Part shown: positions 3,362 through 24,927 of the stretch, one piece after another | Layout: each line of letters begins with the position of its first letter | Position numbering within the stretch: the first letter of the stretch is position 1 | NCBI GenBank assembly: GCA_903860135.1 | Contig: CAIOPG010000012.1 | Location: 1 to 60,221, forward strand | Source: Candidatus Omnitrophota bacterium | GTDB taxonomy: Bacteria > Omnitrophota > Gorgyraeia > Zapsychrales > Fredricksoniimonadaceae | DNA: 60,221 nt | Reading direction: 5' to 3' | The notes under the pieces: model-generated | The model's input: only the letters and a program-made list of their open reading frames with translations | Database searches by the model: none | Told to the model about the DNA's origin: nothing | Position numbers and translations under genes: made by a program

Positions 3362-3409
3362 CTTTATTTTTCGGTTTATTAATTCAATTATTAATATAAT
3401 ATAAGTTAT

Positions 3410-5547: not shown

Positions 5548-5549
5548 TC

Positions 5550-8502: not shown

Positions 8503-10607
8503 ATATCCTGCAAGTGCTTCCGGAACTGAATGTCGGTGGAGTTGAACGTGGGACTGTAGACCTGGCTGTTTATCTCCTCGATCACGGGCATGCCTCAGTC
8601 GTTGTTTCTAATGGCGGGTCGATGGTGGCGGCATTGCAGGCGCATGGGGTAAAACATTACAGTCTGCCCGTTCATCGCAAAAACTTCTTTATTGCCTGGC
8701 AGTGCGTCAAAGATCTGCGCCGGATCATCCGTGAGGAAAAGATCGATATTGTTCATGCGCGTTCGCGTGTTCCGGCCTGGATCGCCTGGCTGGCTACCCG
8801 TAAGACCGAGGCGCAATTTGTGACGACATGTCATGGGTATTATTCACAGAATGTGATGAGCCGTATTATGGGCTGGGGTAAGAGGGTCATTGTGATCAGC
8901 GAGGTGGTAGGACGCCACATGATAGATCATTTCGGTGTTCACCCCGAGAACATCCGTCTGATCCCACGCAGTGTCGATCTGGAAAAATTTAAATTCCGCG
9001 CCCGTCAGCCGGGTCGTTCTTCTGTTGTGGTTTCTATCATCGGACGTATAACCCCGCTTAAAGGTCATGCCTATTTTTTGCAGGGCATGGCCAAGGTGAT
9101 CCGGCTTATGCCGTTTGTGCGGGTGCGTGTTATCGGTGATGCGCCATCGTCCAAAAAAGATTATAAGAACAGCCTGTTATTGCTGGTACGGCGGCTGGGA
9201 ATAACCGACAATGTGGAATTTATGGGTAACCGCGCGGATATCCCGGAACTCCTGCAGGATACCGATATCCTGGTTCTTTCTACGGTGACCCAGGAAGCTT
9301 TTGGCCGCGTGTTGATCGAGGCCCAGGCCGTCGGTGTCCCTGTGATCGCCACCAAGGTTGGCGGTGTGGTTGATATTGTGACGCATGAACAGACCGGGTT
9401 ACTCGTCCTGCCTCGGGATCCCGAGGGGATGGCCGTTGCCGTTATGCGTCTCATCAATGATGGCAAGCTTGCTGATGCCATGGCCATTGAAGCCCGGCGT
9501 GGTGTGGAGAAGAAATACACGTTGGAACAAATGGCTTCAAAAACCATTGCTGTTTATGACGAGGTGCGTTCTGCGGCGAGTATCCTTGTTATCAAACTGG
9601 GTGCTGTCGGCGATATTATCCTTTCAAGTCCGGCTTTCAAGGCCCTGCGCCAACAATTCCCCCACGCGCGCATTTACTGCCTGACAGGTCAGCCCGGGGC
9701 AGCGCTGATGCATGGTTGTCCTTATGTGGATGATGTGGTGGTTTATGATCACAAAGGTAAAGATAAAGGACCGTCGGGTTTCTGGCGTATGATCAAAGAA
9801 CTTAACAAGTATCATTTTGATAAGGTGATTGATTTCCAGAATAACACGCGCAGTCATCTCTTGGCGGCCCTGTGCTTCCCGCGTTTTAGTTATGGGTATG
9901 CCAATAAGAAGATGGGACGGCTCCTCACGGATGGCATTCCGGATGATCAAACGCATCTGCCGCCGGTGGCGCATCAATTCCGTATCCTTGAGAAACTCGG
10001 GATCATCTATGATGATGATTTCTTGCTTGAAATGTGGCCTCGCCGCGACGACCATGATTTTGCCCTTAAGCTTTTGCATGATCAGTGGATCGATGAAAAG
10101 AATCATATTATCGTCGGCATCAATATTTCAGCATCGGACCGTTGGCCGTCGAAAAACTGGCCGTTGGCGTCGCTGGCGGAACTTTGCGACCGGCTTGCGG
10201 CCGATGGTATCCGGGTCTTGATCACAGGAATGGATAAAGATCGCGCCCTGGCACGCCAGTTGGCACTGAGAACAAAGTCAAAACCGGCCCTGATCATCGG
10301 CAAAACGAACATCCTTCAATTGGCGGCGCTTGTGGCGCGTTGCCGTGTCTTTATCACACCCGATTCAGCACCACTGCATGTGGCGTCGGCCATGAAAGTC
10401 CCTGTGGTCGCTCTTTTTGGGCCTACGGATCCACGGCGTCATATTCCTCCCGGGAAGGTGTCTGTGTTGACTAAGGAGATGTCTTGTCGTCCGTGCTATC
10501 AGTCCCGATGCCGTATGGCCGTGCAGGCATGCCTTAAAGATATCACCGCTTATGAAGTTTATCTTAAGGTCAAGGAAATCCTCAAGGAGTCTGATCCGGG
10601 CGCATGA
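8499..10607 (+). CDS. fusion protein: GT4 glycosyltransferase (N) plus GT9 heptosyltransferase-like domain (C)
   Basis: N-terminal half: ILQVLPELNVGGVE and EAFGRVLIEAQAVGVPVIAT..GG (GT4/GT1). C-terminal half: ILVIKLGAVGDIILSSPAFKAL and DSAPLHVASAMKVPVVALFGPTDP (GT9). TTG start overlaps the previous stop (TTGA). Confidence 0.8.
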   Translation: MNILQVLPELNVGGVERGTVDLAVYLLDHGHASVVVSNGGSMVAALQAHGVKHYSLPVHRKNFFIAWQCVKDLRRIIREEKIDIVHARSRVPAWIAWLATRKTEAQFVTTCHGYYSQNVMSRIMGWGKRVIVISEVVGRHMIDHFGVHPENIRLIPRSVDLEKFKFRARQPGRSSVVVSIIGRITPLKGHAYFLQGMAKVIRLMPFVRVRVIGDAPSSKKDYKNSLLLLVRRLGITDNVEFMGNRADIPELLQDTDILVLSTVTQEAFGRVLIEAQAVGVPVIATKVGGVVDIVTHEQTGLLVLPRDPEGMAVAVMRLINDGKLADAMAIEARRGVEKKYTLEQMASKTIAVYDEVRSAASILVIKLGAVGDIILSSPAFKALRQQFPHARIYCLTGQPGAALMHGCPYVDDVVVYDHKGKDKGPSGFWRMIKELNKYHFDKVIDFQNNTRSHLLAALCFPRFSYGYANKKMGRLLTDGIPDDQTHLPPVAHQFRILEKLGIIYDDDFLLEMWPRRDDHDFALKLLHDQWIDEKNHIIVGINISASDRWPSKNWPLASLAELCDRLAADGIRVLITGMDKDRALARQLALRTKSKPALIIGKTNILQLAALVARCRVFITPDSAPLHVASAMKVPVVALFGPTDPRRHIPPGKVSVLTKEMSCRPCYQSRCRMAVQACLKDITAYEVYLKVKEILKESDPGA

Positions 10608-11713
10608 AGATCCTTCTATTGGCCAATCATTTCAATGCCGGCGGCATAACAACGTGCCTTTTGACGCTGGGGAAGGAATATATCCGCCGCGGGCATCAGG
10701 TTTATATGGCTACTTCCGGCGGAGGGTGTGTGGCCGACGCGCAAAAAGCGGGGATAGTGCATTTGACTGTTCCTGGCCTGGGCGTAAAATGTGAATGTCA
10801 TCCTTGCCTCGTCATGGCTGTGGCCAGGGTCGTACGTTATGTGCACGATGAAGGCATTGATATTTTACATGCGCATACACGGGTAACACAGATCGTTGCG
10901 GCGGCGGCAGGATTGTTCACCGGTCGGCCGTATGTTTCGACGTGCCACGGTTTCTTCAAGCCGCGTCCTTTGCGATTGTTACTGCCTTTGTGGGGGCGAG
11001 GCGTCATTGCCATCAGTCGTTCTGTCGCTGAGCATCTTGTCCTTGATCTGAAGGTGGCACGCGATCGGGTGGTATTTGTTCCCAACGGCATTGACCCTGT
11101 AAGGTTTAATCCGCCGTCTCTGGCAGAAAGACTGAAAGTCAGGGAATGTTTTGGGTTTGAGGCAGGTGTACCGGTGGTAGGAACCATTGCCCGCCTTTCG
11201 GATGTGAAAGGTCTTGATTATCTTATTAAGGCCATGGATTTATTGCGTCACCGGATATCCGGCGTTCGATGCCTTGTGGCAGGAGAAGGACCCATGGAAG
11301 AAGAGTTGAAGTCCATGGTGCGTGCGTTGGGCTTGGAAACAACGGTTATTTTTATGCGCATGACGGGACGGCCTGAGGCACTCCTGCCGGTCTTTGATGT
11401 GTTTGCCATGCCGTCCCTTCAGGAAGGGCTTGGCCTTTCAGCGATGGAGGCGGCGGCCTGCGGTATCCCTGTGGTGGCATCGCGGGTCGGCGGGCTTGTC
11501 GAAGCTGTGAATGACGGCATAACCGGTTTTCTGGTGCCAGCAAGAGATCATCGGGCGTTGGCAGACGCGTTAGAACGACTGCTTCTGGACAAGGTTCTTG
11601 CCCAAAGGTTGGGTTGTGCGGGACGTGCGCGGATAATGGCTGAATTCTCGGCAGATGTTATGGCCGTAAAAACCCTCGAGGTCTATGGTAAAGCAATTAC
11701 GGCCCATGCGTAA
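10604..11713 (+). CDS. GT4 family glycosyltransferase
   Basis: MKILLLANHFNAGGITT start and EGLGLSAMEAAACGIPVVASRVGGL motif. ATGA overlap with the upstream gene. Confidence 0.85.
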   Translation: MKILLLANHFNAGGITTCLLTLGKEYIRRGHQVYMATSGGGCVADAQKAGIVHLTVPGLGVKCECHPCLVMAVARVVRYVHDEGIDILHAHTRVTQIVAAAAGLFTGRPYVSTCHGFFKPRPLRLLLPLWGRGVIAISRSVAEHLVLDLKVARDRVVFVPNGIDPVRFNPPSLAERLKVRECFGFEAGVPVVGTIARLSDVKGLDYLIKAMDLLRHRISGVRCLVAGEGPMEEELKSMVRALGLETTVIFMRMTGRPEALLPVFDVFAMPSLQEGLGLSAMEAAACGIPVVASRVGGLVEAVNDGITGFLVPARDHRALADALERLLLDKVLAQRLGCAGRARIMAEFSADVMAVKTLEVYGKAITAHA

Positions 11714-12722
11714 CATCGTTGTTATTTCCGTCAACTGGATCGGTGATGTTGTTTTCTCAACGCCTGTGTACCGGGCGTTGAAAACAGCATACCCTGGCGT
11801 ACGCTTAACGGCACTGGCCGTGCCCAGGGTGAAAGAGGTGCTCGAGCTGTGCCCGGATGTGGATGAGGTTGTTGTTTATAACGAGGCCCGTCAAGGCGGC
11901 GGTCTTGTTCCCATGCTCAGCGCGGCAGGGGCCTTGCGCCGCCGGCATTTTGATGCCGCCTTTATCCTGCGGCGTTCTTTGTCGCGCTCCTGGATTACCC
12001 GCCTGGCCGGTATTCCTGTCAGGGTTGGTTTCGGTGCCCGAGGTTGGGGAGGTTTATTGACCCATACAGCGGATGATACGGGCTTGGACGTTATCCATCG
12101 CAGTGATGCCTACCTCAGGGTGGTCGAAGCTTTCGGTATCAAGGTGGCAGAGCGGTCTTCGCGCCTTGCCGTAGGGCGTGACACCTGCGAACGTGTCGCG
12201 GCTCTTTTGCGTGGACATGGATTAAAAGGCGATGAACGTATTGTTGTTATGCATACAGGTGGGAACTGGGGGCTCAAGCAGTGGCCGGCGTCGCGCTTTG
12301 CCGCCTTAACGGCCCGGTTGACGCAGGAGTTGGGTTTAAAAGTCGTCCTTTCTGGCGCATGGTCGGATGTTGAACGTGTGCGTGCGATCGCCTTGGAATC
12401 GGGGGTTGCTCCGCTTGTGTTGGCGGGTGAGACCGGATTGAAAGAACTGGCGGCGCTTTTCAAACGTGCCTATATGGTGGTATCCGCAGATTCCGGGCCT
12501 TTGCATGTGGCCAGTGCGGTGGGGGCGAATGTGGTGGGACTTTTCGGCCCAACGACGCCAGAGATCACCGGCCCTCGCGGGCAGGGGCGTATCAGGGTTT
12601 TGACCCGTGACACGCGATGCAATCGCGCGCCCTGTTATTACCTGGAGTGTCCGGATAATCGCTGTATGAAAGCATTGACGGTCGACGATGTTCTTCAAAC
12701 TTTCCAGATCCTTAAAAGTTAA
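11706..12722 (+). CDS. GT9 family glycosyltransferase (LPS heptosyltransferase-like)
   Basis: IVVISVNWIGDVVFSTPVYRALK and DSGPLHVASAVGANVVGLFGPTTP. I chose the ATG at 11706; the track ORF starts at 11685. Confidence 0.8.
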   Translation: MRNIVVISVNWIGDVVFSTPVYRALKTAYPGVRLTALAVPRVKEVLELCPDVDEVVVYNEARQGGGLVPMLSAAGALRRRHFDAAFILRRSLSRSWITRLAGIPVRVGFGARGWGGLLTHTADDTGLDVIHRSDAYLRVVEAFGIKVAERSSRLAVGRDTCERVAALLRGHGLKGDERIVVMHTGGNWGLKQWPASRFAALTARLTQELGLKVVLSGAWSDVERVRAIALESGVAPLVLAGETGLKELAALFKRAYMVVSADSGPLHVASAVGANVVGLFGPTTPEITGPRGQGRIRVLTRDTRCNRAPCYYLECPDNRCMKALTVDDVLQTFQILKS

Positions 12723-13635
12723 CCGCGTCTTGCTGATATCACTGAGCAATATCGGTGATGTCGTCATGACTTTTCCAGTCTTTGATGCCCTTGGGACTGC
12801 GTTCCCGGATGCCGCCATCGACGTTGTTGTGGGGCCTAAAGCGGTGGCTTTCTTTAAAGGCAACCCGTATCTCTCTAGGCTTATTCCTTTTAATAAACGT
12901 ATGCTGCCGCTTGAAACCCTTCAGTGGCTTGCAGAGCTTCGACGCACACATTTCGATCTTGTCATTGATCTGCGCAATACGTTTTTCCCTTTTCTGATTA
13001 GGGCAAAGACGGTGACCAGCCCTTTCTTTCATCCCGATAGAATGCATATGAAAGATAAACATCTTGCGCGATTAACACATGTGCTGGGAAAGCCAGCTTC
13101 CTTTTCTGCCCGTCGTGCCATTGTTCTGGCATCAGAAGACAAGCTTTCTGTGAAGAAATTGCTCGGTGGCTGGCAGGATTATGTTGTTATAGCACCCGGT
13201 GCGGCTGATGCCCGCAAGCGTTGGATGGAGGCAGGGTTCGCGGCTTTGCTGGAATATTTCCATGAACGCGGGCAAGCTGTCGTGTTTGTAGGGGACAAGG
13301 CTGACCGCCTGATCGCCGACAGATTAATGCCGCGTGTGTCCGGCGGTGTTTTGAACCTTTGCGGTCAGACAACGCTCCTTGAACTGGCCGGGATACTGGA
13401 AAACGCCGCTCTTGCGCTGGTCAATGATAGCGGCATTATGCATCTGGCAAGTTATCTGGACAGGCCTGTTCTTGCTTTATTCGGGCCAACAGATCCGTTC
13501 CTTTATGGCCCTTGGGGTTCTTGCCGTGGTGTGTTGCGTCAAGGAACGGTTATGGAAGCCATCCAACCAACGGACGTTGTGGCGGCTCTGCGGTCATTGC
13601 ATTTAAATCTGGACACCGGTCCTGTTTTAGGTTAA
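12688..13635 (+). CDS. GT9 family glycosyltransferase (LPS heptosyltransferase-like)
   Basis: VLLISLSNIGDVVMTFPVFDAL and DSGIMHLASYLDRPVLALFGPTDP. Confidence 0.8.
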   Translation: MFFKLSRSLKVNRVLLISLSNIGDVVMTFPVFDALGTAFPDAAIDVVVGPKAVAFFKGNPYLSRLIPFNKRMLPLETLQWLAELRRTHFDLVIDLRNTFFPFLIRAKTVTSPFFHPDRMHMKDKHLARLTHVLGKPASFSARRAIVLASEDKLSVKKLLGGWQDYVVIAPGAADARKRWMEAGFAALLEYFHERGQAVVFVGDKADRLIADRLMPRVSGGVLNLCGQTTLLELAGILENAALALVNDSGIMHLASYLDRPVLALFGPTDPFLYGPWGSCRGVLRQGTVMEAIQPTDVVAALRSLHLNLDTGPVLG

Positions 13636-13701
13636 GGTTTTGCAAGTTTGTTAATGCTAACCAATAATTACGGCATCCTTTTTGATTAAAGGTAGCTTCA
13701 G

Positions 13702-14760
13702 ATGACACAAGCTGGGTCCTCCCAAAACTTTTCCCGTATTTTAATTATCCGTGCTGACAGGATAGGCGATACGGTGTTATCCACGCCAGTTATCGAGGCC
13801 ATGAGGACGGCCTATCCTTCGGCACATATTGCCGTGATGGTTCAAACCTATGTTAAAGATGTCGTTGCGAACAATCCCTTCCTGAATGAAATCATCATTT
13901 ACAACAAGAAGCAGGTCGAAGGCGACTGGCTGGGTTTTTCTCAGTTCGCGTGGGAAATAAGAAAAAAGAAGTTCGACCTTGCCTTGATCCTTCATCCGAC
14001 GAATATTGTTCATTCCCTTGCTTTCCTCGCTGGCATACCGCGCAGGGTCGGGTACGACCGCAAGATGGCTTTTCTTCTGACGGACACGATCAAAGATACC
14101 AAACACCTCGGGCAGAAGCATGAAATGGAGTATGTCCTGGATCTGGTGCGGCATCTGGGGATCGATCCTGTGCATCACGGGCCGTATGCGCCTTTGGACG
14201 CACGTTCTGAGCAATGGGCGGATGAATTATTGAGCAAGTACGGGCTGACACCCCAGGACAAGATATTGGCGTTGCATCCGGGAACCAGTTGCCGTTCCAA
14301 AATGTGGCCTGCGGCGTATTTTGCGGGAGCGGCCGATGAACTTGTCCGGCGTGAAGGCTTCAAGGTTTTGGTTCTGGGCGGGCCTGATGAAAAAGGAATA
14401 ACACAGGATGTTGTGCGGCGTATGTCTGCACCAGCCATTGAACTGGCCGGCATTTCTGTGAGCCAGGATACCAGTATCCTTAAACGATGCCAGCTGTTGC
14501 TCACAACCGATTGCGGGATCATGCATATCGCGGCGGCGCTGGGGGTTCCCCTTGTTGTTATTTTTGGAAGAAAACAGCCCGGGATCAGCCCGATCCGGTT
14601 CGGCCCCGTGAGCAAGCAAGGCCGGGTGTTGCATAAAGACGTTGGGTGTAGGCAATGCCTTGCCCATGAATGCACCAGGGGTTTTGCCTGCCTGCAGGCT
14701 GTGCGTGTGGACGAAGTGGTTGACGCGGCACAAGCGCTCCTCAAGGAGCCACATGCCTGA
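13702..14760 (+). CDS. GT9 family glycosyltransferase (LPS heptosyltransferase-like)
   Basis: ILIIRADRIGDTVLSTPVIEAMR and DCGIMHIAAALGVPLVVIFG. Confidence 0.8.
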   Translation: MTQAGSSQNFSRILIIRADRIGDTVLSTPVIEAMRTAYPSAHIAVMVQTYVKDVVANNPFLNEIIIYNKKQVEGDWLGFSQFAWEIRKKKFDLALILHPTNIVHSLAFLAGIPRRVGYDRKMAFLLTDTIKDTKHLGQKHEMEYVLDLVRHLGIDPVHHGPYAPLDARSEQWADELLSKYGLTPQDKILALHPGTSCRSKMWPAAYFAGAADELVRREGFKVLVLGGPDEKGITQDVVRRMSAPAIELAGISVSQDTSILKRCQLLLTTDCGIMHIAAALGVPLVVIFGRKQPGISPIRFGPVSKQGRVLHKDVGCRQCLAHECTRGFACLQAVRVDEVVDAAQALLKEPHA

Positions 14761-16174
14761 ACAAAGCCAATCATTCACACGCGAGGCGATCGCCTCGCTT
14801 TGCGCGCAGGCGGTGCATCCGGATGAAGTTGTCAGTAATACTGCGGTGCGCCGTTTATTCGCCGAGGTTGTCGAGGTTCTCAACGATTCTTTCTTGCCCA
14901 GCCGCGCGGCGCTTTACGACAAGATATTCACCCAAGTCATTAATCATTGCCGGCATCTTCCTGAAGGGAAGGGCCTTGATGAGCTTTTAAAGCGTTTTGA
15001 TATCACCGATGAACGTACCATGTTGGCCAGAAAGAAAAAGATACAGGCCGTAGCGGTCTTCTCGCCGACGGTGTTGAAGAAAGTCCGCAAGATCTGTGTC
15101 CTGTCGCGTGTGACGATCGGGGCTGATGTTGCTGTTACCGGTGTTGTCTTGCGCAAGTTGATGACTGTTTTTCCCGGCGTCAGCATCACCCTGATCGGAC
15201 CGAACAAGCTGGCCGAGGTGTTCGGTGGGCATCCTGATATCAGGATCAAGGATGTGCCGTATGCCCGTCGTGGCGGACTGCTGGGGCGGCTTTATGCCTG
15301 GGTCGACCTTGTGTCGATCATTGATGCAGAAAAGCAAGACCTGGAGCCGGAAGAGTTCCTGGTCATTGACCCTGATTCTCGCCTGACCCAGTTGGGGCTT
15401 TTGCCGGTTGTGCCGGAGGATCGAGGGTATTATTTCTTTCCGAGTAGGACGTATACCAACGGGCAGGCAAGTTCTATGGGTGCGCTGACCGCCTGCTGGC
15501 TTGAGGATATCTTTGGGGGTGGCAACAAGAAAATATATCCCGGAATATTTATTAATCAGGATGTGCTGGCGCTGGGCAAGACCTGCGCGCAGAAGCTTTC
15601 CTTGTCAGGCCAACGCCCAGTTGTCAGCATCAACTTTGGTGTTGGCGGCAATGAGAACAAAAGGGTTTCTTCCGTTTTCGAGGAGTGCCTTGTGGCCGCT
15701 ATTATCCAGCTGGGCGCGGCTGTTATCCTGGACAAAGGGTTTGGCAGTGAAGTCGCGCTGACCGATGCCATGCTCGCACGACTGAAATCAAAAGGCTTGG
15801 CTGTTCTTGAGGTCGACCCAGGGAATATTCAGGAGTTATCCCGGCAAAAATCCTTAACATACGATGTTCTGACGTGGGAGGGCGGTATCGGCGTTTTTAG
15901 TGCCATGATCGCGGCCAGTGATGTTTATATCGGTTATGATTCCGGTTTTCAGCACATTGCCGCGGCGCAGGGCATTGCGGTGATCGATGTCCTTATCGGT
16001 GCGGCATCGCCATTATTCGCCCGGCGCTGGACGCCTTACGGAAGGAATAATGTCCTGGTTATCCGTGGCTCACGGGGGCGGCGTGCCCAGCCGTATTCAG
16101 AGGCGATCCTAACCCAGATCACGGCATATCTGGGTAGAAAGTTATTGGCTAAAAATAATAAAAGTAATTCTTGA
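14753..16174 (+). CDS. divergent GT9-like glycosyltransferase with ~125-aa N-terminal extension
   Basis: ICVLSRVTIGADVAVTGVVLRKL and GYDSGFQHIAAAQGIAVIDV resemble the two GT9 signature regions. The ATG at 14753 overlaps the upstream stop (ATGCCTGA). The track ORF start at 14642 lies inside the previous gene. Confidence 0.6.
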   Translation: MPEQSQSFTREAIASLCAQAVHPDEVVSNTAVRRLFAEVVEVLNDSFLPSRAALYDKIFTQVINHCRHLPEGKGLDELLKRFDITDERTMLARKKKIQAVAVFSPTVLKKVRKICVLSRVTIGADVAVTGVVLRKLMTVFPGVSITLIGPNKLAEVFGGHPDIRIKDVPYARRGGLLGRLYAWVDLVSIIDAEKQDLEPEEFLVIDPDSRLTQLGLLPVVPEDRGYYFFPSRTYTNGQASSMGALTACWLEDIFGGGNKKIYPGIFINQDVLALGKTCAQKLSLSGQRPVVSINFGVGGNENKRVSSVFEECLVAAIIQLGAAVILDKGFGSEVALTDAMLARLKSKGLAVLEVDPGNIQELSRQKSLTYDVLTWEGGIGVFSAMIAASDVYIGYDSGFQHIAAAQGIAVIDVLIGAASPLFARRWTPYGRNNVLVIRGSRGRRAQPYSEAILTQITAYLGRKLLAKNNKSNS

Positions 16175-16177
16175 AAT

Positions 16178-16206
16178 TTGACATCATGCCGTTGGTATGT
16201 TATATT
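16178..16206 (+). promoter_or_regulatory. sigma70-like promoter upstream of the secreted-protein locus
   Basis: TTGACA (16178-16183), 17-nt spacer, TATATT (16201-16206). It sits in the 60-nt AT-rich gap between the LPS block and the 16235 gene. Confidence 0.55.
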
Positions 16207-16234: not shown

Positions 16235-17593
16235 ATGTTAAAAACACTACTCACACTTTTTTTCGTGGTTTCGATGGTTTCTACATCTTTGGCGGCTGTC
16301 ACGTTAAGTGTGACACCGCTCGATGGTAGCAACAGTTTACGTCTTGATAATGTTACGGCTGGCCTGAATAATCGTAAAGAGATTCGTGTTCAGGTGGCTT
16401 CAACAGATGGTAACCGTTACCAGGTTTTTCAGCGATTGGTCGAGCCACTGATCAATGAAAAGGGTATGGCACTTGATAGCCAAGCGATTGAAACAGCGTC
16501 TTATAATAATACAAATTCTTCAGGTACGCTTTATTTGCAGAACGTTGAACGTGTCAATTTGAGCGAACAGCATCTTTATTCATCCGGGCAGGGTGGCGAC
16601 AGCGATTCGTTCATCATGGGATATTCTATTCGACCGGATCAGGTCGTTGAGGGCGGGCATTACACAGGAAGGCTGGTTTTTATCGTTCGGGCCGTAGGCA
16701 GTGATGCTCAGGATCAGGTGATTGTGAATGTTTCGCTTGAAAGTCAGTCCGTACGGGTGATCAAGGTTGCCGGCGCACATGTGGATGATCGTGTTACAAT
16801 TAAAGATACAGATAATTATAAAACTTTGACAGATTATGTCAAAGTTGCATTTTCAGGCAATGATCGTGATATTCGGATTTATCAGGAGTTTTCATCGTGG
16901 CCTAAAAATGTTAGGGGTGATGAGCTGGGACAGGGGCTTTTGCAGTTTAATGTGTCAAGTCTTTCCACTGATAATGCTATGGATCAAGGTGCGGTTGTGG
17001 CGGGTTTGGACAGGGTTCTTATTTATTCAGGATCGGCGCGTGCAAATGAAATAGCGGTGGCGTGGGTGATCGATCCTGAAAAGGTCAAGGGGCAGGATAC
17101 AGGATCTTATGAGGGAAAGCTGAAATATGTAGTGGAATCATCCGATGGACGCGAAGAATTTTTTGTTAACCTTGAATGTATTATTCAACCAGTTTTCACG
17201 ATCACGGTCGATGTTCCTCCTGGCGGGGTTAATTTTGGCAAGATTTTACCCAACAGCCCTGCTCAAGAGAAATCTGTTGATGTGATCGTTAATTCAAATC
17301 TTAAGAAGCCGTACCAGGTAGTTCAGGGGCTACAGGCGGCTATGACCAACCAGAAAGGAGAGCAGATCAATAATAAATATTTGATGATGAAGGTGGAGTT
17401 GCCGGCAGGACAAAAAGGACAGCCCAGATTCACGGAATTCACCCCTGTAGAGACCGCTGAATATCCAGTTTTTCTTTCCGATGCGCAGGGCAGTCCGGTG
17501 TCTTTTAAAGTTATATATAGTTTACAAGGGTACCCGGGGGTTATGCCTGGGGATTTTCTGGCACCTGTCAGGTTCAGCCTGCAGGAAAACTAA
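16235..17593 (+). CDS. secreted three-domain protein, putative fibre/tip subunit
   Basis: Sec signal peptide MLKTLLTLFFVVSMVSTSLAAV. Three ~140-150-aa internal repeats each carry a [RP]YQV.Q.L...N.KG-like motif. Each ends in a G.Y.G.L-type strand: GGHYTGRLVFIV, TGSYEGKLKYVV, PGDFLAPVRFSL. Confidence 0.6.
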   Translation: MLKTLLTLFFVVSMVSTSLAAVTLSVTPLDGSNSLRLDNVTAGLNNRKEIRVQVASTDGNRYQVFQRLVEPLINEKGMALDSQAIETASYNNTNSSGTLYLQNVERVNLSEQHLYSSGQGGDSDSFIMGYSIRPDQVVEGGHYTGRLVFIVRAVGSDAQDQVIVNVSLESQSVRVIKVAGAHVDDRVTIKDTDNYKTLTDYVKVAFSGNDRDIRIYQEFSSWPKNVRGDELGQGLLQFNVSSLSTDNAMDQGAVVAGLDRVLIYSGSARANEIAVAWVIDPEKVKGQDTGSYEGKLKYVVESSDGREEFFVNLECIIQPVFTITVDVPPGGVNFGKILPNSPAQEKSVDVIVNSNLKKPYQVVQGLQAAMTNQKGEQINNKYLMMKVELPAGQKGQPRFTEFTPVETAEYPVFLSDAQGSPVSFKVIYSLQGYPGVMPGDFLAPVRFSLQEN

Positions 17594-17608: not shown

Positions 17609-18304
17609 ATGAAGAGGATAATGGGGTTAATAGCAACAGCCGTATTTGTGGTAGGGGTTGCCGGGTCAGCGCATGCTATTGTCGCGACGGACACTTTTTC
17701 GCTCACGGCGACCATGCAGGCAGTTTCATCGATTAGTATGAGTGTTAATTCGGTTGATTCAGCCACATCGAAGATTTGGACACCCGTAACAGTCACGGGA
17801 GGAGCTGCAGCGTTGAGTTTCGATCCTATGTCATATAAAACGTTCTATGATACCGTTGATCCAACAAAGGTAGTTGGTAATGCATGGCTTCCCGATCATT
17901 TTTTTGCCATTGATATTGGTTCTCAGGGTTCTGTAACTAACTATACCGTTGCGGTGAAATATGCCGAAACCAATGCGGATAATCCAAACTTTGCTGCGGG
18001 TGGTCATGGTTTGGGTTGGAAATCGACCGTAACGTTTATGCAGGAAACAGGTACTGCTGAAAATGCGATTGTAAGGCATGGTGGCGCGGGCAAGATGTTG
18101 CTTAAAGACATTGCTTTGACAGGAGCTACCGGTCAAGTTGTTACAAAAGCTGATGTAGGTTCCGGTTGGTTAAGATTGTATGTTGGTATCGTGGCTAAGG
18201 CTACGACAGGCATTGCGGATCCGGCGGCAGGCGAAGTGTTCACCAATGCGGATGCTGCTGGTGCTTATAAGGGCACACTGACAATTGTTGCAACAATGAC
18301 CTGA
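17609..18304 (+). CDS. secreted protein, putative major fibre subunit (paralogue A)
   Basis: Strong RBS (AAGGAG) and signal peptide ...VAGSAHA. Shares blocks with the 18422 gene: GHGLGWKSTVTFM, HGG.GKMLLKD, GEVFTN.D..G.Y.G.LTI.AT. Followed by a strong hairpin terminator. Confidence 0.6.
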   Translation: MKRIMGLIATAVFVVGVAGSAHAIVATDTFSLTATMQAVSSISMSVNSVDSATSKIWTPVTVTGGAAALSFDPMSYKTFYDTVDPTKVVGNAWLPDHFFAIDIGSQGSVTNYTVAVKYAETNADNPNFAAGGHGLGWKSTVTFMQETGTAENAIVRHGGAGKMLLKDIALTGATGQVVTKADVGSGWLRLYVGIVAKATTGIADPAAGEVFTNADAAGAYKGTLTIVATMT

Positions 18305-18325: not shown

Positions 18326-18393
18326 CGGACACAGCCAGACGATAGTCTTTCTTGGCTTGGAAAGTATCGCTGGCTGTGTCCGTTAGGTTTTTT
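18326..18393 (+). terminator. intrinsic terminator/attenuator hairpin between the two paralogous subunit genes
   Basis: Long near-perfect inverted repeat CGGACACAGCCAG.CGATA..CTTTC / GAAAG.TATCG.CTGGCTGTGTCCG (18326-18382), followed by a T-run at 18388-18393. Confidence 0.7.
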
Positions 18394-18421: not shown

Positions 18422-19090
18422 ATGAAAACAATAAAAGGATTACTTTGGGTGTTTCTCGTGATCCTCTTTATGACTAAATCTAGTTATGCCTTTATTATGA
18501 ATAAAGATTTGGGTCTTGTGGCCACCATCGAGGCTGCCACTGGTTTGAATTTCCTTACCTTCTCGGTGACGAACAGCTCGGGTAGTGATGTCCTTTCCCC
18601 GGCAGGTTCAACGTTATCTTTCGGTGATCTTATTTACAGCGCGGTCACGGATCCTTTAACACATGTTGTGTCCACTTCCTGGCGATCGGATCACGCATTT
18701 GCCATTGAGATCGCGCCTGTTGGTGGAACGGCTAGTACGATGAATATTAATGTGCAATATAGTGAATTGACTAATCCAAACAGTACGACGAACGGGCATG
18801 GTTTAGGATGGAAGTCAACGGTAACATTTATGAACATTATAAATAATGTCGAATCACCTATAACTGCTCACGGTGGTACCGGCAAGATGCTCCTTAAGGA
18901 TTTGCCAGAATCAGGTGAGGCGGTAACATCCGCACAGATCATTGCTGGATCGTTGCGGATGTATATCGGGATGGTTGCCAAAGATCCATCTGCCGCCATC
19001 CCGGATCCGGTCGATGGTGAGGTGTTCACCAATTTTGATCAGCCTGGTGAATATACTGGGAAATTAACGATTTCAGCCACAGGTTTTTAA
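18422..19090 (+). CDS. secreted protein, putative fibre subunit (paralogue B)
   Basis: Signal peptide ...MTKSSYA. By eye roughly 40-45% identical to the 17609 product, with the same conserved blocks. C-terminus PGEYTGKLTISATGF. Confidence 0.6.
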   Translation: MKTIKGLLWVFLVILFMTKSSYAFIMNKDLGLVATIEAATGLNFLTFSVTNSSGSDVLSPAGSTLSFGDLIYSAVTDPLTHVVSTSWRSDHAFAIEIAPVGGTASTMNINVQYSELTNPNSTTNGHGLGWKSTVTFMNIINNVESPITAHGGTGKMLLKDLPESGEAVTSAQIIAGSLRMYIGMVAKDPSAAIPDPVDGEVFTNFDQPGEYTGKLTISATGF

Positions 19091-19100
19091 GGATAGACCC

Positions 19101-19922
19101 ATGATAAACGCAGGCAAGATAACTTTTAAAGTCATGTTTGTTACGTTAGTGATTTTTGGCTTAACAGCCAGTCAGGCAAGAGCCCAGTATTTTATTGAGG
19201 GGGGCAAGGAAGTGCTTGCAGTGTCAGGTGGTGAGCGTATTAATAAATCTGTCATCATTCACAATTCAACCGCAGAGAATATTTCCTTGAAAGCTTCGTG
19301 GGAAGATTTTCAGTACGAACCCCCTTTTGACGGCACAAAGTCTTTTGTCCCGGCAGGCACAGGCACGCGCTCGCTCAGCCAGTGGATCAGTTTTTCTTCG
19401 ACTCCATTTATAATCCCCCCCTTTGGACAACAGCAGCTCAATTATACGTTAAGTGTGCCAGCGGTAATCAAGGACGGATATTACGGTGTGCTTTTTGTTG
19501 AAAGAGCAGGTGATCCCGAAAATACAAAGACTGGGTTGCAGATCATTACCCGTGTGGGCAGTCTTTTCTTTGTTGAACCTAAGGATGCGGTGAGAAAGGC
19601 TCAGATCCGTGACATCGCCATTGCGGGCACAACGCTCAAAGGGATATTCCATAATCAGAGTACCGTTGTGCTGATCCCTAAGATGACCTATTATTTTATG
19701 GATGAGCAGGGTGTTGTAGCTGATCGGGGCGATATTAAAGCATTATATCTTCCGCCCGATGGAGCGGGCAATTTTGAGATCGCTTTGCCGGCAGGTTTGG
19801 CCATTGGGAAAAACACGTTGGTCATCAATGCCGAGCTTGAAGACAATAATGTTGTTGTCAAAGAAGTGGAAATAACCAAGGATGCCGCGGCTAATCTGAC
19901 GATTTTAAATACACGGGATTGA
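19101..19922 (+). CDS. secreted protein, putative PapD-like periplasmic chaperone
   Basis: Signal peptide ...ASQARAQ. RINKSVIIHNSTAENISLKASWEDF and PFIIPPFGQQQLNYTLSVP...GLQIITRVGSLFFVEP parallel PapD-family patterns (R.i....k..s+.+.N......+q.W+ ; P.+v.PP...l.p...q.lR+ ; lq.a...riKLfyRP). Two-domain length (~250 aa mature). Confidence 0.45.
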   Translation: MINAGKITFKVMFVTLVIFGLTASQARAQYFIEGGKEVLAVSGGERINKSVIIHNSTAENISLKASWEDFQYEPPFDGTKSFVPAGTGTRSLSQWISFSSTPFIIPPFGQQQLNYTLSVPAVIKDGYYGVLFVERAGDPENTKTGLQIITRVGSLFFVEPKDAVRKAQIRDIAIAGTTLKGIFHNQSTVVLIPKMTYYFMDEQGVVADRGDIKALYLPPDGAGNFEIALPAGLAIGKNTLVINAELEDNNVVVKEVEITKDAAANLTILNTRD

Positions 19923-19967: not shown

Positions 19968-22847
19968 ATGACCATAAAACAAGCGTTGATTGTCGTCCTT
20001 TCTGGATTGGTTATAATGATATGTCTGACCCCATCATGGGCCAGTAACGCTAATACTTACAAATATTTTATTAATGAAGGTAAGCACGCCATTGAACGCC
20101 GGGATATTCCTAGGGCGCTGCATTGTTTCAAATGGGCGTATCGGATCAATCCCCAGGCATCAGAGCCACTTGATTATCTCAATAATGTGCCTGGCGGTAA
20201 AGCTGTTTTGGATCAGGAAGTGATTTATGCCTCACTCATGGCATCGCGTATCGCCCCTCCGCGCAAATTTCAAGATACGCAAGCACTCATCGACCATATC
20301 AATTTGGTGAAACGCTCCCTGGACAAGATGATACGGCCTGCGGTGACAGTTCCGCCTGTTGCTATGGTGCCTATATCACATCCTGTTACTGAGGCCGTTA
20401 AAAAAGATGAGCCTACGCTCACGGCCACAAAGACTTATACGCGTCAGGGCAAGAAAGCGGTGGAGGATGTCATCCTCCTCGCAGATATAGTCAAAAGTAC
20501 GATACCCAGGCCAACCCTGCGCCTGGAAATCGGCAGAACCATTATTCTTGAAGGCAAAAATATTCAGAAGTTTTTGGTTGTTTCCGGTGAGATCATCGGG
20601 GTCAAGCGGTTGTCGGCCGATCGCCTTCAGGTGGTGGCTGTTATGCGCGGCAGTACCATATTCCACGTTTGGGATGATGCCGGACGAACAACAATCTATA
20701 TGGAGACACTTTTCCCTGATTCTTCTGGGGACAATGGGAATGTGAGGTCTTCGTCGTTTGAACATGCGGCACCGTTCAGGTTCAGTTATTCCAATAACTG
20801 GAGCGGTTATTATATGGCACCGCGCGGTTCGCGCATGAAGCGTCAGGGTCTATCCTTTAACGAAAACGTTGGGGTTAACGGGGAGACGCCGTATGGGTAT
20901 CTAGATTCCTCGGCTTCTCTGTCCGGTTTTAATCCTGTCAGGGATATTCCTGCCTATACCTTGGGCTTGACCGGTATCCCTGTGCCTGGCACAAGGGCTA
21001 TGAGTGTCCGGCTTTTTGATTCGACAAGGTCTTTGTCGCCGCTGAGTATGCCAGGGGCGCATTTACGTGGTGCGTTTGTGGATCTCCAAGCATTTAAGGA
21101 AGCTGTTGGCTTTTCCGTAACTCACGGGCAGTTACAGCCGACTTTTGGTTTTTCCATGTTATCAAGCGCACAGCAATCTTATCTGGATGCTTTTAAGGTG
21201 GTGCTTTTCCCCAATGACCGGGATCATCATTATGCGTTTAATTATGCCCGAGGATCCGGGGCAGATCGCAATACCGCTCTTACTGCGCAGGCTTACTCGG
21301 TCGAAGGTGTTTACAGGATTAACAAGGTGCTTTTCAATGCGGAGCTGGCTCGCGATAGCCGCAATACCGCTTCTATCGGGGGGATGTCCTGGGGCGGCAA
21401 GGGATGGGATTCAGCCTTGAGTTTTAAGAATATCAACAAGAATTTCACAACCGTGACCAGTGCGCCTTCCGGTCAAGGGACAACCAGTATGCTGTGGACA
21501 TCCAATATCAACGCTGAATCATACTCTGCTGGCACCATGCTGGATGTGACCCGGCAAAGGCTTTACACAAATCCGAATAATCCGGATGCGCTGGATTATG
21601 ATGCCAACGCTAACATAAATATCCCGTTGAGTCCGAAACTTGCGTTTGCCAGCCGTGTGCGTTATGTGGATACCGCCGGAGATATATTGCCCCGCCACAG
21701 CATGGGCCTTAACACCGGTCTTACCAGGAACATAGAGGTCTGGGGGGGGCGGAATGGTTCTGTTTATGTGAGCGGAGGGTATCAGGAAAGCACCTATCCG
21801 GATAATCCGACGTCAGATTACCATTCGTATGATGCAGCGACAGGCGTCAATCTTTCGCTGACAAAAAACCTGTCATGGTATCTTAGTTATCAATATTCGT
21901 GGCTCATTGAGGGGCTTTCAGATTTTATGTCGAATCCGATGGCAACAACAACCGGTCTATCGTATAACAGGCAATTCATGGAACGTCTTTCCGGGAATTT
22001 CAGCCTTTCTTATCGTAATGAACAGAGCACCCAAAGCCTCAACAGTTTCATGGCAGGTGAGGATAGTGTTGGTCTGTCCGGTTCGCTGACGTATAATCCC
22101 AAGAATGACCTGAGCTATTTCATTGATTCGAATGTACAGAATGTTTGGTCAAAGGCCGGACAGAGTACATCCTATACCAGCATGGATCTGCGGATGGGGA
22201 TGCGCGGTATCTGGGGTACTTCTCTTGTATGGGATCCCAAAGGGGCTGTGTCAGGTGTGGTTTATAAAGACAAAAACGGCAATGGGAAGAAAGATGAGGG
22301 GGAACCAGGCCTTCCTGATATCAAGGTCAAAGCTGGTGAGAAGGAAGCGATTACGGACAAGGATGGGCGGTACCGCATTGAAGTCAAGGGGAAAAGGGTG
22401 AACGTGACACCGCTGATGGAAACGATCCCGACAGGTTATATTTTTTCGACGCCTTCATTTTTTAAAGTGGATATTCTTCACGGCATTGCGCGGGTCGTCG
22501 ACTTCGGACTGACAACCCAATCAGGGATTTACGGCATTGTGTTTGTAGATAAAAACGGGAACAACCAGCCTGACAGGGGGGATCAGTTTCTTCAGCACGT
22601 CAAGATTTTGCTTGATGGCAAAAAAACTATCATGAGCGATTCACAGGGTACTTATTTTTTCCAGAAAGTTTCCGAGGGCGGGCATAATATTGCCATAGAC
22701 ATGAAAACCTTGCCACAAGGCCTTATCCCTCTTATTAAGATCAAGAATGACATTGTGGTGACTGAGGGCATCAATTATATATTCCATATCCCCATGAGGC
22801 AGAAGGCTGTCGAGCCTCCTATAGAACCACAACGCTCCGAAAAGTGA
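19968..22847 (+). CDS. large outer-membrane protein: TPR-like segment, CpaC/RcpC-type pilus N-terminal domain, beta-barrel, two C-terminal Cna-B/CarboxypepD_reg-like domains
   Basis: Signal peptide ...TPSWASNA. LRLEIGRTIILEGKNIQKFLVVSGEIIGVKRLSADRLQVVAVMRGSTIFHVWDD resembles the 'pilus formation protein N-terminal' domain. A long region has alternating-hydrophobic strands (LSLTKNLSWYLSYQYSW, LSGNFSLSYRNEQ). Two repeats follow: GVVYKDKNGNGKKDEGEPGLPDIKV...TDKDGRYRIE and GIVFVDKNGNNQPDRGDQFLQHVKI...SDSQGTYFF. Confidence 0.6.
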   Translation: MTIKQALIVVLSGLVIMICLTPSWASNANTYKYFINEGKHAIERRDIPRALHCFKWAYRINPQASEPLDYLNNVPGGKAVLDQEVIYASLMASRIAPPRKFQDTQALIDHINLVKRSLDKMIRPAVTVPPVAMVPISHPVTEAVKKDEPTLTATKTYTRQGKKAVEDVILLADIVKSTIPRPTLRLEIGRTIILEGKNIQKFLVVSGEIIGVKRLSADRLQVVAVMRGSTIFHVWDDAGRTTIYMETLFPDSSGDNGNVRSSSFEHAAPFRFSYSNNWSGYYMAPRGSRMKRQGLSFNENVGVNGETPYGYLDSSASLSGFNPVRDIPAYTLGLTGIPVPGTRAMSVRLFDSTRSLSPLSMPGAHLRGAFVDLQAFKEAVGFSVTHGQLQPTFGFSMLSSAQQSYLDAFKVVLFPNDRDHHYAFNYARGSGADRNTALTAQAYSVEGVYRINKVLFNAELARDSRNTASIGGMSWGGKGWDSALSFKNINKNFTTVTSAPSGQGTTSMLWTSNINAESYSAGTMLDVTRQRLYTNPNNPDALDYDANANINIPLSPKLAFASRVRYVDTAGDILPRHSMGLNTGLTRNIEVWGGRNGSVYVSGGYQESTYPDNPTSDYHSYDAATGVNLSLTKNLSWYLSYQYSWLIEGLSDFMSNPMATTTGLSYNRQFMERLSGNFSLSYRNEQSTQSLNSFMAGEDSVGLSGSLTYNPKNDLSYFIDSNVQNVWSKAGQSTSYTSMDLRMGMRGIWGTSLVWDPKGAVSGVVYKDKNGNGKKDEGEPGLPDIKVKAGEKEAITDKDGRYRIEVKGKRVNVTPLMETIPTGYIFSTPSFFKVDILHGIARVVDFGLTTQSGIYGIVFVDKNGNNQPDRGDQFLQHVKILLDGKKTIMSDSQGTYFFQKVSEGGHNIAIDMKTLPQGLIPLIKIKNDIVVTEGINYIFHIPMRQKAVEPPIEPQRSEK

Positions 22848-23076
22848 TCAATTGATTGTTCCTGACCAGTTGCTGTTCCTGCACCAGCGGAAGGTTCTGT
22901 TGTTGAATCGTACTAATTCCGGTTGATGCCTGTTCCGTTTCCTGCGGTATGGTTATCATGCGTGGGAGTGTGACAGAAAGAATGAATGATTGTGTTTCTG
23001 TTACGCCATTGGCCAGAACGAATGTTGGGAAGGAAATGATGATCAACAGCGCGAGGGGGAGTATTTTGTTTAACAT
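22819..23076 (-). CDS. small secreted protein (85 aa), convergent with the outer-membrane protein gene
   Basis: Signal peptide MLNKILPLALLIIISFPTFVLANG and AAGAGG Shine-Dalgarno 8 nt upstream. Its 3' end overlaps the 959-aa ORF by 29 nt. Confidence 0.45.
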   Translation of the reverse strand: MLNKILPLALLIIISFPTFVLANGVTETQSFILSVTLPRMITIPQETEQASTGISTIQQQNLPLVQEQQLVRNNQLITFRSVVVL

Positions 23077-23328: not shown

Positions 23329-24927
23329 TTGTTGAATACAGCAAAAGACGTAATTTTCTTTGGATTTGATCGCAAGATACCTTTTTATCTGATGGGCATC
23401 TTCCTGTTCATGATATCGCTGCTGACGTATATCAATGCGTTCACGAACGGTTTCATGTTCGATGATTTCACCTGTTTATTTGGTCAGTATAGTGTCGCGG
23501 GGAGATCTTTTGCTGATATATTCATGCATAATCAGGCTGGTTTCTACCGGCCGGTGGGGCATCTTCTTTTGTGGATCTCGGCGGGCGTATTTGGGAATAA
23601 TGTTATCGGCTATCATGCGGTTAATTTTTGTCTTTTTCTTTTGATGCTTTTCTTTTTTGTGATCATCGCTGAGAAATTAACGCAGAATAGGATGCTGGCT
23701 TTTATGGCGGGGTTGCTGTATGCGGTACATCCGATCAACGGCATGTCGGTCAATTACATAACAGCCTGTAATAATTCGTCGTATGTGTTGCTGATGCAAC
23801 TTAGTTTAATTTCATATATCTATTATACGGAGTCCAGACGGAAGTATTTATATGTACTCAGCTTCATTGGCTTCATATTGGCGTTCCTTGCCCATGAAAT
23901 TGCCCTCTTATTACCATTCTTTCTTATTGCCTATCGTATTGTTTGTAAAGGCGCCCGCTTGAAGCCATCGTTTTATTCGGTTGCTCCTTTTATTGTATTG
24001 GCAGGCTGTTATTTTCTTTTTCGGTCGAATGGAACGGCGGTTTTTGTTCATAAAATAAATATTCCAATAAGTGCGACCGGCGACCTGATGGCATATTTCT
24101 CGACATGGGTGGATCTTATACGCTGGTATTTTACTCAATTGATTTATCCCGCAAAAGTTGTTTTTTTATGGAGTGCCAAGATGGGATCCGCGCGTTTTAT
24201 CGTTAATGCGGCTATATTTCTTCTGGGATCGATCGGGTTTTGTTACTTTATTATAAAGAACGGGAAGAACTGGAAGTCTTTTGCCTTACTTTTATTTCTG
24301 GGGGGGTGCGCACCTACATTTTATAGTTGTTTTGTGTTTTCACCGAAGGTATGGCCTTATTTTGAGCCGCATTGGATGTATTTTTCTCAAATGGGTTTCT
24401 TTATACTGGCTGGCGCTTTCTTCTACTATATAATCAAGAGAAATAGGTTGGTTGGACATTTGTTGATCGTTGCGGTACTGTGTTTGTTTATTGTTTGCTC
24501 CTGGCAGTATAATTCAAAGTGGCGGACGCAGGAGGAGTACTCTCGTTACTGGTTGTCCGTAAATCAGGGGAATTTAACAGCCTTTTATGGGCTGGGAACT
24601 TCTTTGATGGATAAAGGTGATTATGCCGGGGCAGTTGATGTCTTCAGATCGGCCAATACGCTCCTGGGGAATATTTCTGTGGCCATGGCTGTCGCTCTAG
24701 GGCATTGCTATGATGAGTTGGGTAACGGTACAGAGGCATTAGTAATATTTAATACGGTCACTAAAGAGAATCCCGGAAATGCACTTGTTTATCATTATAA
24801 AGGTTTGTACCTGATGAAACGTGGGGATCATGCTTTAGCCAGAGAAGCTTTTTTAAAATCCGTTAAACTGGATCCTAAATTTTCTTTATCGTATCCCTAC
24901 CTTCAGGATACACGCCTGAAGAAATAG
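23329..24927 (+). CDS. polytopic membrane protein with C-terminal TPR repeats (TMTC/PMT_2-like GT-C glycosyltransferase candidate)
   Basis: About 10 hydrophobic segments, an FMFDDF acidic motif in the first loop (GT-C hallmark), and C-terminal TPR-like repeats (GLGTSLMDKGDYAGAVDVF..., YHYKGLYLMKRGDHALAREAFLKSVKLDP). The start is uncertain: TTG at 23329, with ATG alternatives downstream. Confidence 0.55.
   Translation: MLNTAKDVIFFGFDRKIPFYLMGIFLFMISLLTYINAFTNGFMFDDFTCLFGQYSVAGRSFADIFMHNQAGFYRPVGHLLLWISAGVFGNNVIGYHAVNFCLFLLMLFFFVIIAEKLTQNRMLAFMAGLLYAVHPINGMSVNYITACNNSSYVLLMQLSLISYIYYTESRRKYLYVLSFIGFILAFLAHEIALLLPFFLIAYRIVCKGARLKPSFYSVAPFIVLAGCYFLFRSNGTAVFVHKINIPISATGDLMAYFSTWVDLIRWYFTQLIYPAKVVFLWSAKMGSARFIVNAAIFLLGSIGFCYFIIKNGKNWKSFALLLFLGGCAPTFYSCFVFSPKVWPYFEPHWMYFSQMGFFILAGAFFYYIIKRNRLVGHLLIVAVLCLFIVCSWQYNSKWRTQEEYSRYWLSVNQGNLTAFYGLGTSLMDKGDYAGAVDVFRSANTLLGNISVAMAVALGHCYDELGNGTEALVIFNTVTKENPGNALVYHYKGLYLMKRGDHALAREAFLKSVKLDPKFSLSYPYLQDTRLKK

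Follow-up and report, generated by a model that had tools for sequence, protein, structure and literature searches.

A conserved Candidatus Omnitrophota gene cassette with an usher-like outer-membrane protein: a probable divergent chaperone-usher-type surface-fibre system

What is an outer-membrane protein with the domain order of a pilus usher, built from parts that ushers do not have, doing in a Candidatus Omnitrophota bacterium? The question is raised by g959, an open reading frame of contig CAIOPG010000012.1 (assembly GCA_903860135.1), of which the whole 60,221-nt stretch that was analysed is called the window here. From the sequence alone, g959 had been described (hereafter the original prediction) as a mosaic of a TPR-like N-terminus, a CpaC-type N-domain, a large barrel and two C-terminal beta-sandwich domains, arranged as in an usher and matching no described family. 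Chaperone-usher pili are built by assembly machines that work independently of ATP; they are known almost exclusively from Proteobacteria, apart from a few archaic examples elsewhere. The Omnitrophota surveys consulted treat type IVa and Tad pili and never ushers or fimbriae (PMC10066038), and no literature joining "chaperone-usher" with Omnitrophota was found. The analysis reported here places g959 at the end of a conserved gene cassette, which is probably a divergent chaperone-usher-type surface-fibre system with g959 as its outer-membrane assembly and secretion platform.

The open reading frame lies where it was predicted and encodes 959 amino acids (aa) from an ATG start; about 25 full-length homologues align with it from residue 1, so the start codon is credible. 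The protein and its parts are located as follows.

19968-22847, + strand: g959, usher-like outer-membrane protein, 959 aa, last gene of the cassette
20046-20330, + strand: tetratricopeptide repeat (TPR)-like helical hairpins of g959, aa 27-121 (AlphaFold2, family profile, Pfam in homologues)
20466-20711, + strand: beta N-domain of g959, of the Tad-secretin N-terminal type (PF13629), aa 167-248
20778-22217, + strand: 26-strand transmembrane beta-barrel of g959, aa 271-750 (DSSP of the AlphaFold2 model)
22239-22517, + strand: C-terminal beta-sandwich 1 of g959, SdrD_B- or CarboxypepD_reg-like, with a DKNGNG motif, aa 758-850
22524-22802, + strand: C-terminal beta-sandwich 2 of g959, SdrD_B-like, with a DKNGNN motif, aa 853-945

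Domain searches of g959 and 25 members of its family recovered the parts that had been named. PF13629 (T2SS-T3SS_pil_N) matches aa 182-241, overlapping the stretch of about aa 185-250 to which the CpaC-type domain had been assigned, at E 8e-7 and 29.1 bits against a cut-off of 23 bits; it is present in 23 of the 25 members, and the family profile also gives a weak match to a secretin chain (8jvb_A). SdrD_B matches two stretches within the C-terminal 200 residues (E 1.4e-10) and is found in every one of the 25 members; the repeat motifs can be read directly in the sequence of g959 (VYKDKNGNGKKDEGE...TDKDGRY and VFVDKNGNNQPDRGD...SDSQGTY). The TPR-like N-terminus gives no Pfam match in the window protein alone; TPR_1/TPR_2 is matched by 12-13 of the 25 members, the family profile matches consensus-TPR structures (E 9e-15, profile positions 35-131), and helical hairpins appear in the AlphaFold2 model. 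The region spans only about 1.5-2 repeats, and a disordered, Pro-rich linker comes after it (about aa 122-166). Distant members often lack the TPR, yet retain PF13629, the barrel and two or three SdrD_B domains; within the family, it is one subclade that carries the TPR region as an accessory.

The barrel was confidently modelled. In an AlphaFold2 model built on a 25-sequence alignment (mean predicted local distance difference test score, pLDDT, 79; predicted TM-score, pTM, 0.54), aa 271-750 form 26 long antiparallel strands with pLDDT mostly 85-96 (strands assigned with DSSP), joined by periplasmic turns of 2-6 residues and extracellular loops of 5-15 residues. Short periplasmic turns and longer outer loops are the normal signature of an outer-membrane barrel with both ends in the periplasm, and the even number of strands puts the N-domain and the two C-terminal sandwiches on the same side. 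No domain is inserted within the modelled barrel, which has no insertion longer than 15 residues.

No NCBIfam model matches g959. Where homologues carry a name it is "hypothetical protein", with one exception, a partial homologue mis-named "MSCRAMM family adhesin SdrC"; most are unnamed. No well-characterised family of unrelated function matches, and the combination, which had not been recognised as a known family, is indeed undescribed in any annotation or paper.

The fold that g959 most resembles is that of the ushers. In a Foldseek comparison with the PDB, ranks 1-10 are full-length FimD and PapC structures (E 6e-20 to 3e-14), with alignments of about 760-810 columns; the next matches are SdrD B-domains (E 4e-13), followed by the barrel-only usher structures 3ohn_A and 2vqi_A (E 5e-11 and 7e-10) and, at about 1e-8, by the generic large barrels MtrB, OprC, Cir, FepA and FadL. 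On the predicted structure, the match to ushers is one of architecture and barrel class and is not proof of homology. An usher-like topology made from other parts is what the fold comparison and Pfam together describe. The word mosaic holds in that the parts belong to other Pfam families; the independent origins that it implies may be overstated, since a very divergent usher lineage is equally possible.

Evidence beyond that used by the original prediction comes from the genes next to g959, which follow one another in the order g452, g231, g222, g273 and g959.

16235-17593, + strand: g452, secreted 452-aa protein, cassette gene 1; proposed tip, adhesin or anchor subunit
17609-18304, + strand: g231, small secreted protein of 231 aa; proposed major fibre subunit
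18422-19090, + strand: g222, paralogue of g231, 222 aa; proposed second or minor subunit
19101-19922, + strand: g273, periplasmic protein of 273 aa with two immunoglobulin (Ig)-like domains; proposed PapD/WxLIP-like chaperone (AlphaFold2, Foldseek)

The four upstream genes are tightly packed (intergenic gaps in the cassette 16, 118, 11 and 46 nt), and a signal peptide is readable in each of their products. The order is conserved in about 22 loci, which are all the sufficiently long related loci that were compared and include members only 25-30% identical: a protein of about 410-470 aa, one to three proteins of about 200-240 aa, one of about 265-300 aa, and then the outer-membrane protein of about 900-1000 aa. 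The first of these, the g452 homologue, is syntenic in the same loci (about 22) at 25-62% identity. L012 (2731-4574) and L014 (2377-4635) have three tandem small-subunit paralogues, which stand upstream of the g452 homologue and not between it and the chaperone gene; in L001 an additional copy is encoded by the other strand, so the subunit genes vary both in where they lie and in copy number. Flanking genes are unrelated between genomes. In the window, the cassette lies between lipopolysaccharide (LPS)-core-type glycosyltransferase genes of families GT9 and GT4 upstream and a GT4/GT2/radical-SAM cluster downstream; these sugar genes lack synteny in other genomes, and the cassette therefore stands as an autonomous module. 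In one genome (L003, 3622-4983) a T2SSE-family ATPase gene directly precedes the cassette; as this gene is not conserved, a connection with the cassette is improbable.

The distribution of the family is wide in number and narrow in phylum. A profile of the N-domain and barrel of g959, searched against 1.84 billion cluster representatives (50% clustering), matches 332 proteins at E <= 1e-3, of which 208 reach E <= 1e-30, so that the features of g959 are not there by chance. Among species-representative genomes, scanned with an 8-sequence alignment as query, all 21 full-length matches (21/21) are metagenome-assembled genomes (MAGs) of Candidatus Omnitrophota, some of them deposited under the coarse label "uncultured Planctomycetales"; a scan of genome contigs with the single g959 protein as query gave no matches. 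Lake-water metagenomes contain DNA of the window.

The gene immediately upstream of g959 encodes a protein with a chaperone-like fold. The AlphaFold2 model of g273 has two Ig-like domains (pLDDT 92.6, pTM 0.81); its closest fold match is WxLIP of Enterococcus faecium (Foldseek, E 3e-12), and further matches are the pilus chaperones CfaA (TM 0.60-0.63), FimC, Caf1M, YadV, DraB, CsuC and EcpB, with E 4e-9 to 1e-7 and TM 0.5-0.63 for pilus chaperones as a group and all chaperone-usher branches represented. The best PDB sequence match of the g273 profile is also a chaperone, EcpB, and is not significant (E 0.15). Weak, sub-threshold matches to WxLIP_PGBD occur in 14 of 37 family members (best 1e-5) and to WxLIP_HBD in 4 of the 37; g273 of the window itself matches neither Pfam family. 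There are 66 homologues, of which those with a named source are Omnitrophota MAG proteins, and none carries a Pfam annotation. The sole internal low-confidence segment of the model (aa 131-150) lies right before the strand that is best conserved in the family, LQIITRVGSLFFVEP, in which R151, G153 and L155 are invariant; K36 in the first strand is invariant as well. By analogy with known chaperones, the element around aa 131-160 is a candidate for a donated strand. AlphaFold2 models of WxLIP predict that a strand from a flexible hairpin inserts into its WxL partner and completes the partner's beta-sandwich (PMC10599100), which is the same principle of donor-strand complementation as that of chaperone-usher chaperones, and the WxLIP likeness of g273 is for this reason counted in favour of a chaperone-usher-type system. 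A conserved operon that joins a gene of PapD-like fold to subunit-like proteins strengthens the usher analogy.

The two small proteins, g231 and g222, are 40% identical to each other and belong to a family of which 26 sequences were aligned, each with a signal peptide. Hydrophobic residues alternate in the mature N-terminus just behind the cleavage site, a segment that looks beta-like (consensus "TFTVSATVP"); the C-terminus is strongly conserved ("FTNAD.aG.YtGtLtvtATv") and contains a G-x-Y-x-G-x-L-x-V strand motif. A terminal G-x-Y-x-G/D-T-L-x-V-x-V strand together with an N-terminal extension is typical of chaperone-usher, SCPU and DUF4402 pilins. The signal peptides, terminal motifs, tandem paralogues and a hairpin after the gene look, as far as sequence can tell, like typical traits of pilin genes. 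The larger secreted protein, g452, also has a signal peptide and carries the strand motif G-x-Y-x-G-x-L twice, at aa 141 and at aa 290; it gives no Pfam or PDB sequence match except to DUF4402 in one of 21 members (1.4e-4), and self-comparison of its family alignment revealed no internal repeats. A match to NCBIfam FimA among the searches of the small subunits and g452 is insignificant. Two possible expression signals accompany these genes.

18326-18393, + strand: hairpin with a long perfect stem and a U-run after it, between g231 and g222; proposed to act as an attenuator or to stabilise mRNA
16178-16206, + strand: promoter-like site, TTGACA, 17-nt spacer, TATATT and an upstream TG (consensus match)

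The hairpin comprises 57 nt with about 25 bp and has a folding energy of -51 kcal/mol (z -6.3; 0 of 200 shuffles as stable). In L002, L004 and L022 the small-subunit gene is likewise followed, at the same place, by a hairpin of unrelated sequence (z -3.8 to -5.2), and this arrangement is that expected for boosting a major subunit over its assembly machinery. The near-consensus sigma-70-like site lies 29 nt before g452; promoter-like matches in the region as a whole are not more numerous than in shuffled sequence, and it is the position of this site that makes it plausible.

A locus outside the phylum may bridge this family and recognised ushers. Positions 1708-8556 of CAZVXJ010000006.1, from an alphaproteobacterial MAG (L030), encode a secreted 186-aa protein, a 279-aa protein, an outer-membrane protein of about 1000 aa and then a beta-helix protein. 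The 279-aa protein is clearly homologous to g273 (hhalign 98.6%, E 1e-15). The outer-membrane protein has SdrD_B/CarboxypepD_reg C-terminal domains, as g959 does, and in addition a sub-threshold match to the Pfam family Usher (E 1e-3, aa 365-495 against profile positions 89-208) and a pairwise alignment to the plug segment of FimD (E 0.003); a search for its homologues found 2 proteins only. Chaperones of the g273 type thus occur beside a protein with some direct usher sequence signal, and the locus suggests that they exist outside Omnitrophota.

The following route of assembly would fit these proteins. Sec would export all five products of the cassette, g959 included, each of which has a readable signal peptide; in the periplasm, g273 would capture g231, g222 and probably g452, donating to them a strand supplied by the flexible hairpin and the conserved strand at aa about 131-160, on the precedents of PapD and WxLIP. 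Complexes of chaperone and subunit would dock on the PF13629 N-domain of g959 and on its two SdrD_B-type C-terminal domains, which may act as do C-terminal domains 1 and 2 (CTD1 and CTD2) of ushers; after hand-over, the subunits would polymerise and pass through the 26-strand barrel with no use of ATP. The PF13629 domain, which directly precedes strand 1, is a candidate N-terminal gate by analogy with the plugs of TonB-dependent transporters. The hairpin after g231 could raise the ratio of major subunit to machinery, and the TPR region of the subclade might contact peptidoglycan or a partner protein, or serve in self-piloting. The presumed fibre would function in adhesion to surfaces or host cells.

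Several results weigh against this reading. At the level of sequence, Usher, PapC_N and PapC_C are unmatched at E <= 1 in g959 of the window and the 25 members, and alignment of the family profile with E. coli FimD by hhalign is negative (probability 0.8%); PapD_N and PapD_C are likewise unmatched in all 37 members of the g273 family, for which hhalign against E. coli FimC is negative too. The barrel, although monomeric and comparable to that of ushers in size class, has 26 strands rather than their 24, and the plug that ushers carry between strands 6 and 7 has no place in g959, where the turn between these strands is 4 residues (aa 376-379). The TM-scores of the usher matches are low (0.29-0.38 at full length, 0.42-0.44 for the barrel only) and the pTM of the model is 0.54; a model of several domains whose packing is uncertain is expected to score low. 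Barrel-only usher structures match modestly better than the barrels of MtrB and TonB-dependent transporters, which means that much of the full-length signal is shared domain order. The small subunits (26 members) have no Pfam or PDB sequence match, and no relationship of g452 to them is demonstrable by hhalign, which aligns a 13-column GxYxGxL motif only. The usher side of the L030 link has weak scores, and the L030 barrel has no detectable similarity to the Omnitrophota barrel. On expression, no RNA-seq runs containing the locus were found. Ushers are defined by hidden Markov model (HMM), strand number and plug, PapD chaperones by HMM, and WxLIP proteins by profile threshold and a transmembrane helix; as the proteins of the cassette lie outside these definitions, it is described as working like such systems and not as a member of any of them.

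The alternative that best survives keeps the same machinery and drops the fibre: g452, g231 and g222, exported and anchored by g273 and g959, would form a surface complex or coat that is not polymeric. The cassette would then be a diderm counterpart of the Gram-positive WxL/WxLIP surface complexes, with g959 as both translocon and anchor. The nearest structural and Pfam relatives of g273 are indeed WxLIP proteins, which form stoichiometric complexes with WxL proteins and not pili (PMC10599100). However, the g273 model has no C-terminal transmembrane helix such as that of WxLIP, the WxL family of Pfam is unmatched in the 26 small-protein members, and both the tandem paralogues of the subunit and the hairpin behind its gene point to a structural polymer made in abundance. 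We regard a non-fibre complex as unlikely, and as the most serious competitor to a chaperone-usher-type fibre system.

It is very improbable that g959 is an export porin for exopolysaccharide or an LPS-related product, of the TPR-plus-barrel type (PgaA, BcsC, PelB), that serves the surrounding glycosyltransferase region. Such a porin would account for an N-terminal TPR followed by a large barrel, and for the five GT9/GT4 genes upstream and the GT4/GT2/radical-SAM genes downstream of the cassette, but it is the four protein genes and not the sugar genes that are conserved beside g959 homologues. The TPR is missing from distant members, the PF13629 domain and the two C-terminal sandwiches are not found in such porins, and PgaA, BcsC, AlgE and Wza are not among the top 50 fold matches of g959.

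Just as poor are the prospects of a gated uptake channel resembling a TonB-dependent transporter, with the N-domain as its plug, or of an MtrB-like 26-strand sheath for a periplasmic partner. TonB-dependent transporters and MtrB are among the fold matches (E ~1e-8, 650-750 aligned columns), MtrB likewise has 26 strands, and the N-terminal domain of g959 stands right before strand 1 as it does in TonB-dependent transporters; yet ushers match 6-12 orders of magnitude better, the Pfam families Plug and TonB_dep_Rec are unmatched in the g959 family, a CXXCH haem motif is found in no protein of the operon, and what is conserved beside g959 is a protein of chaperone fold together with secreted proteins of structural appearance. 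Identification of g959 as a secretin was rejected, the PF13629 N-domain alone being common to both, with no match to Secretin (PF00263) in the window protein or the 25 members and a barrel that is monomeric.

Beyond a chaperone-usher-type fibre system in general terms, a more specific proposal is offered tentatively: that the cassette is an unrecognised, phylum-wide branch of donor-strand fibre assembly, in which a WxLIP-type chaperone works with a plug-less 26-strand usher whose secretin-type N-domain possibly serves as gate. If so, the Gram-positive WxL/WxLIP surface complexes and the Gram-negative chaperone-usher pili would be linked in evolution, and the ultra-small and probably host-associated Omnitrophota would possess, besides type IVa and Tad pili, a third and unreported class of adhesive appendage. 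Under the general reading as a chaperone-usher-type system, if it is right, the WxLIP-like chaperone would tie a poorly understood Gram-positive surface system to strand complementation, and a phylum thought to attach to or prey on cells would have a conserved five-gene adhesion or fibre module. The design space of ushers would be widened by a version that is recognisable in structure and an orphan in sequence, with respect to barrel size, gating without a mid-barrel plug and the periplasmic domains to which chaperone-subunit complexes are recruited.

Other features of the window lie around the cassette, one of them overlapping the 3' end of g959 by 29 nt.

22819-23076, - strand: g85, convergent 85-aa open reading frame with a signal peptide

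Called genes of 84-102 aa occupy the position of g85 in L001-L004, and tblastn with g85 finds matches in 10 loci, at 52-54% identity in L008 and L009 and weak elsewhere; g85 has no Pfam match. Directly downstream of the cassette in the window, at 23329-24927 (+ strand), lies a gene whose 532-aa product is a polytopic membrane protein that ends in a TPR array (TPR_1/TPR_2, E 1e-11 to 1e-13); this gene is not conserved beside the cassette elsewhere. Upstream, at 8499-16174 (+ strand), six consecutive glycosyltransferase genes form an unusual density of LPS-core-type enzymes: a 702-aa GT4-GT9 fusion, one GT4, three clear GT9 (heptosyltransferase-type) and one marginal GT9. G+C content is 0.41-0.49 from about 16000 to 42000, against 0.52-0.54 in both flanks; this low-GC block begins at the cassette and includes genes for glycosyltransferases, a YfhO-like membrane protein, a methyltransferase and several B12/radical-SAM enzymes. 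A possible explanation is a cell-surface island that was acquired or evolves fast.

PgaA and BcsC porins have a long TPR array and a C-terminal barrel of 16-18 strands and are encoded with a synthase operon, whereas the TPR of g959 is short and dispensable and its barrel is followed by two further domains. The Tad/Flp secretins (CpaC/RcpA) have the PF13629 N-terminal beta domain in common with g959; unlike them, g959 has a monomeric 26-strand barrel and not a multimeric one, and the cassette has no conserved gene for an ATPase, a platform protein or a prepilin. The outer-membrane protein of L030, with its FimD-like plug segment, weak Usher match and lack of PF13629, is also unlike g959. WxLIP proteins (DUF916/DUF3324; PF06030 and PF11797) of Enterococcus and other Firmicutes are, like g273, encoded together with small and large secreted partners; the cassette differs from these systems in its diderm host, in the added outer-membrane barrel protein and in partners that have no WxL domain.

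With PapD-like chaperones (FimC, Caf1M, CfaA, CsuC, EcpB; PF00345/PF02753), g273 shares the two-Ig fold, the periplasmic location and the gene position, and its flexible loop and conserved strand sit where these chaperones have the F1-G1 loop and the G1 donor strand; at about 250 mature residues it is larger than they are. The ushers FimD and PapC (PF00577, PapC_N PF13954, PapC_C PF13953), the best PDB fold match of g959, are classically proteins of Proteobacteria and not of Omnitrophota, and they carry PapC_N where g959 has a PF13629 domain of the Tad-secretin type; the SdrD_B (PF17210)/CarboxypepD_reg-type C-terminal domains with DxNGNG motifs and the TPR extension of g959 are likewise unlike their parts. 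What g959 shares with them is the order of a periplasmic N-domain, a large monomeric barrel and two periplasmic C-terminal beta-sandwiches and, as with ushers, its gene directly follows that of a two-Ig chaperone-fold protein and those of small secreted proteins, here subunit-like.

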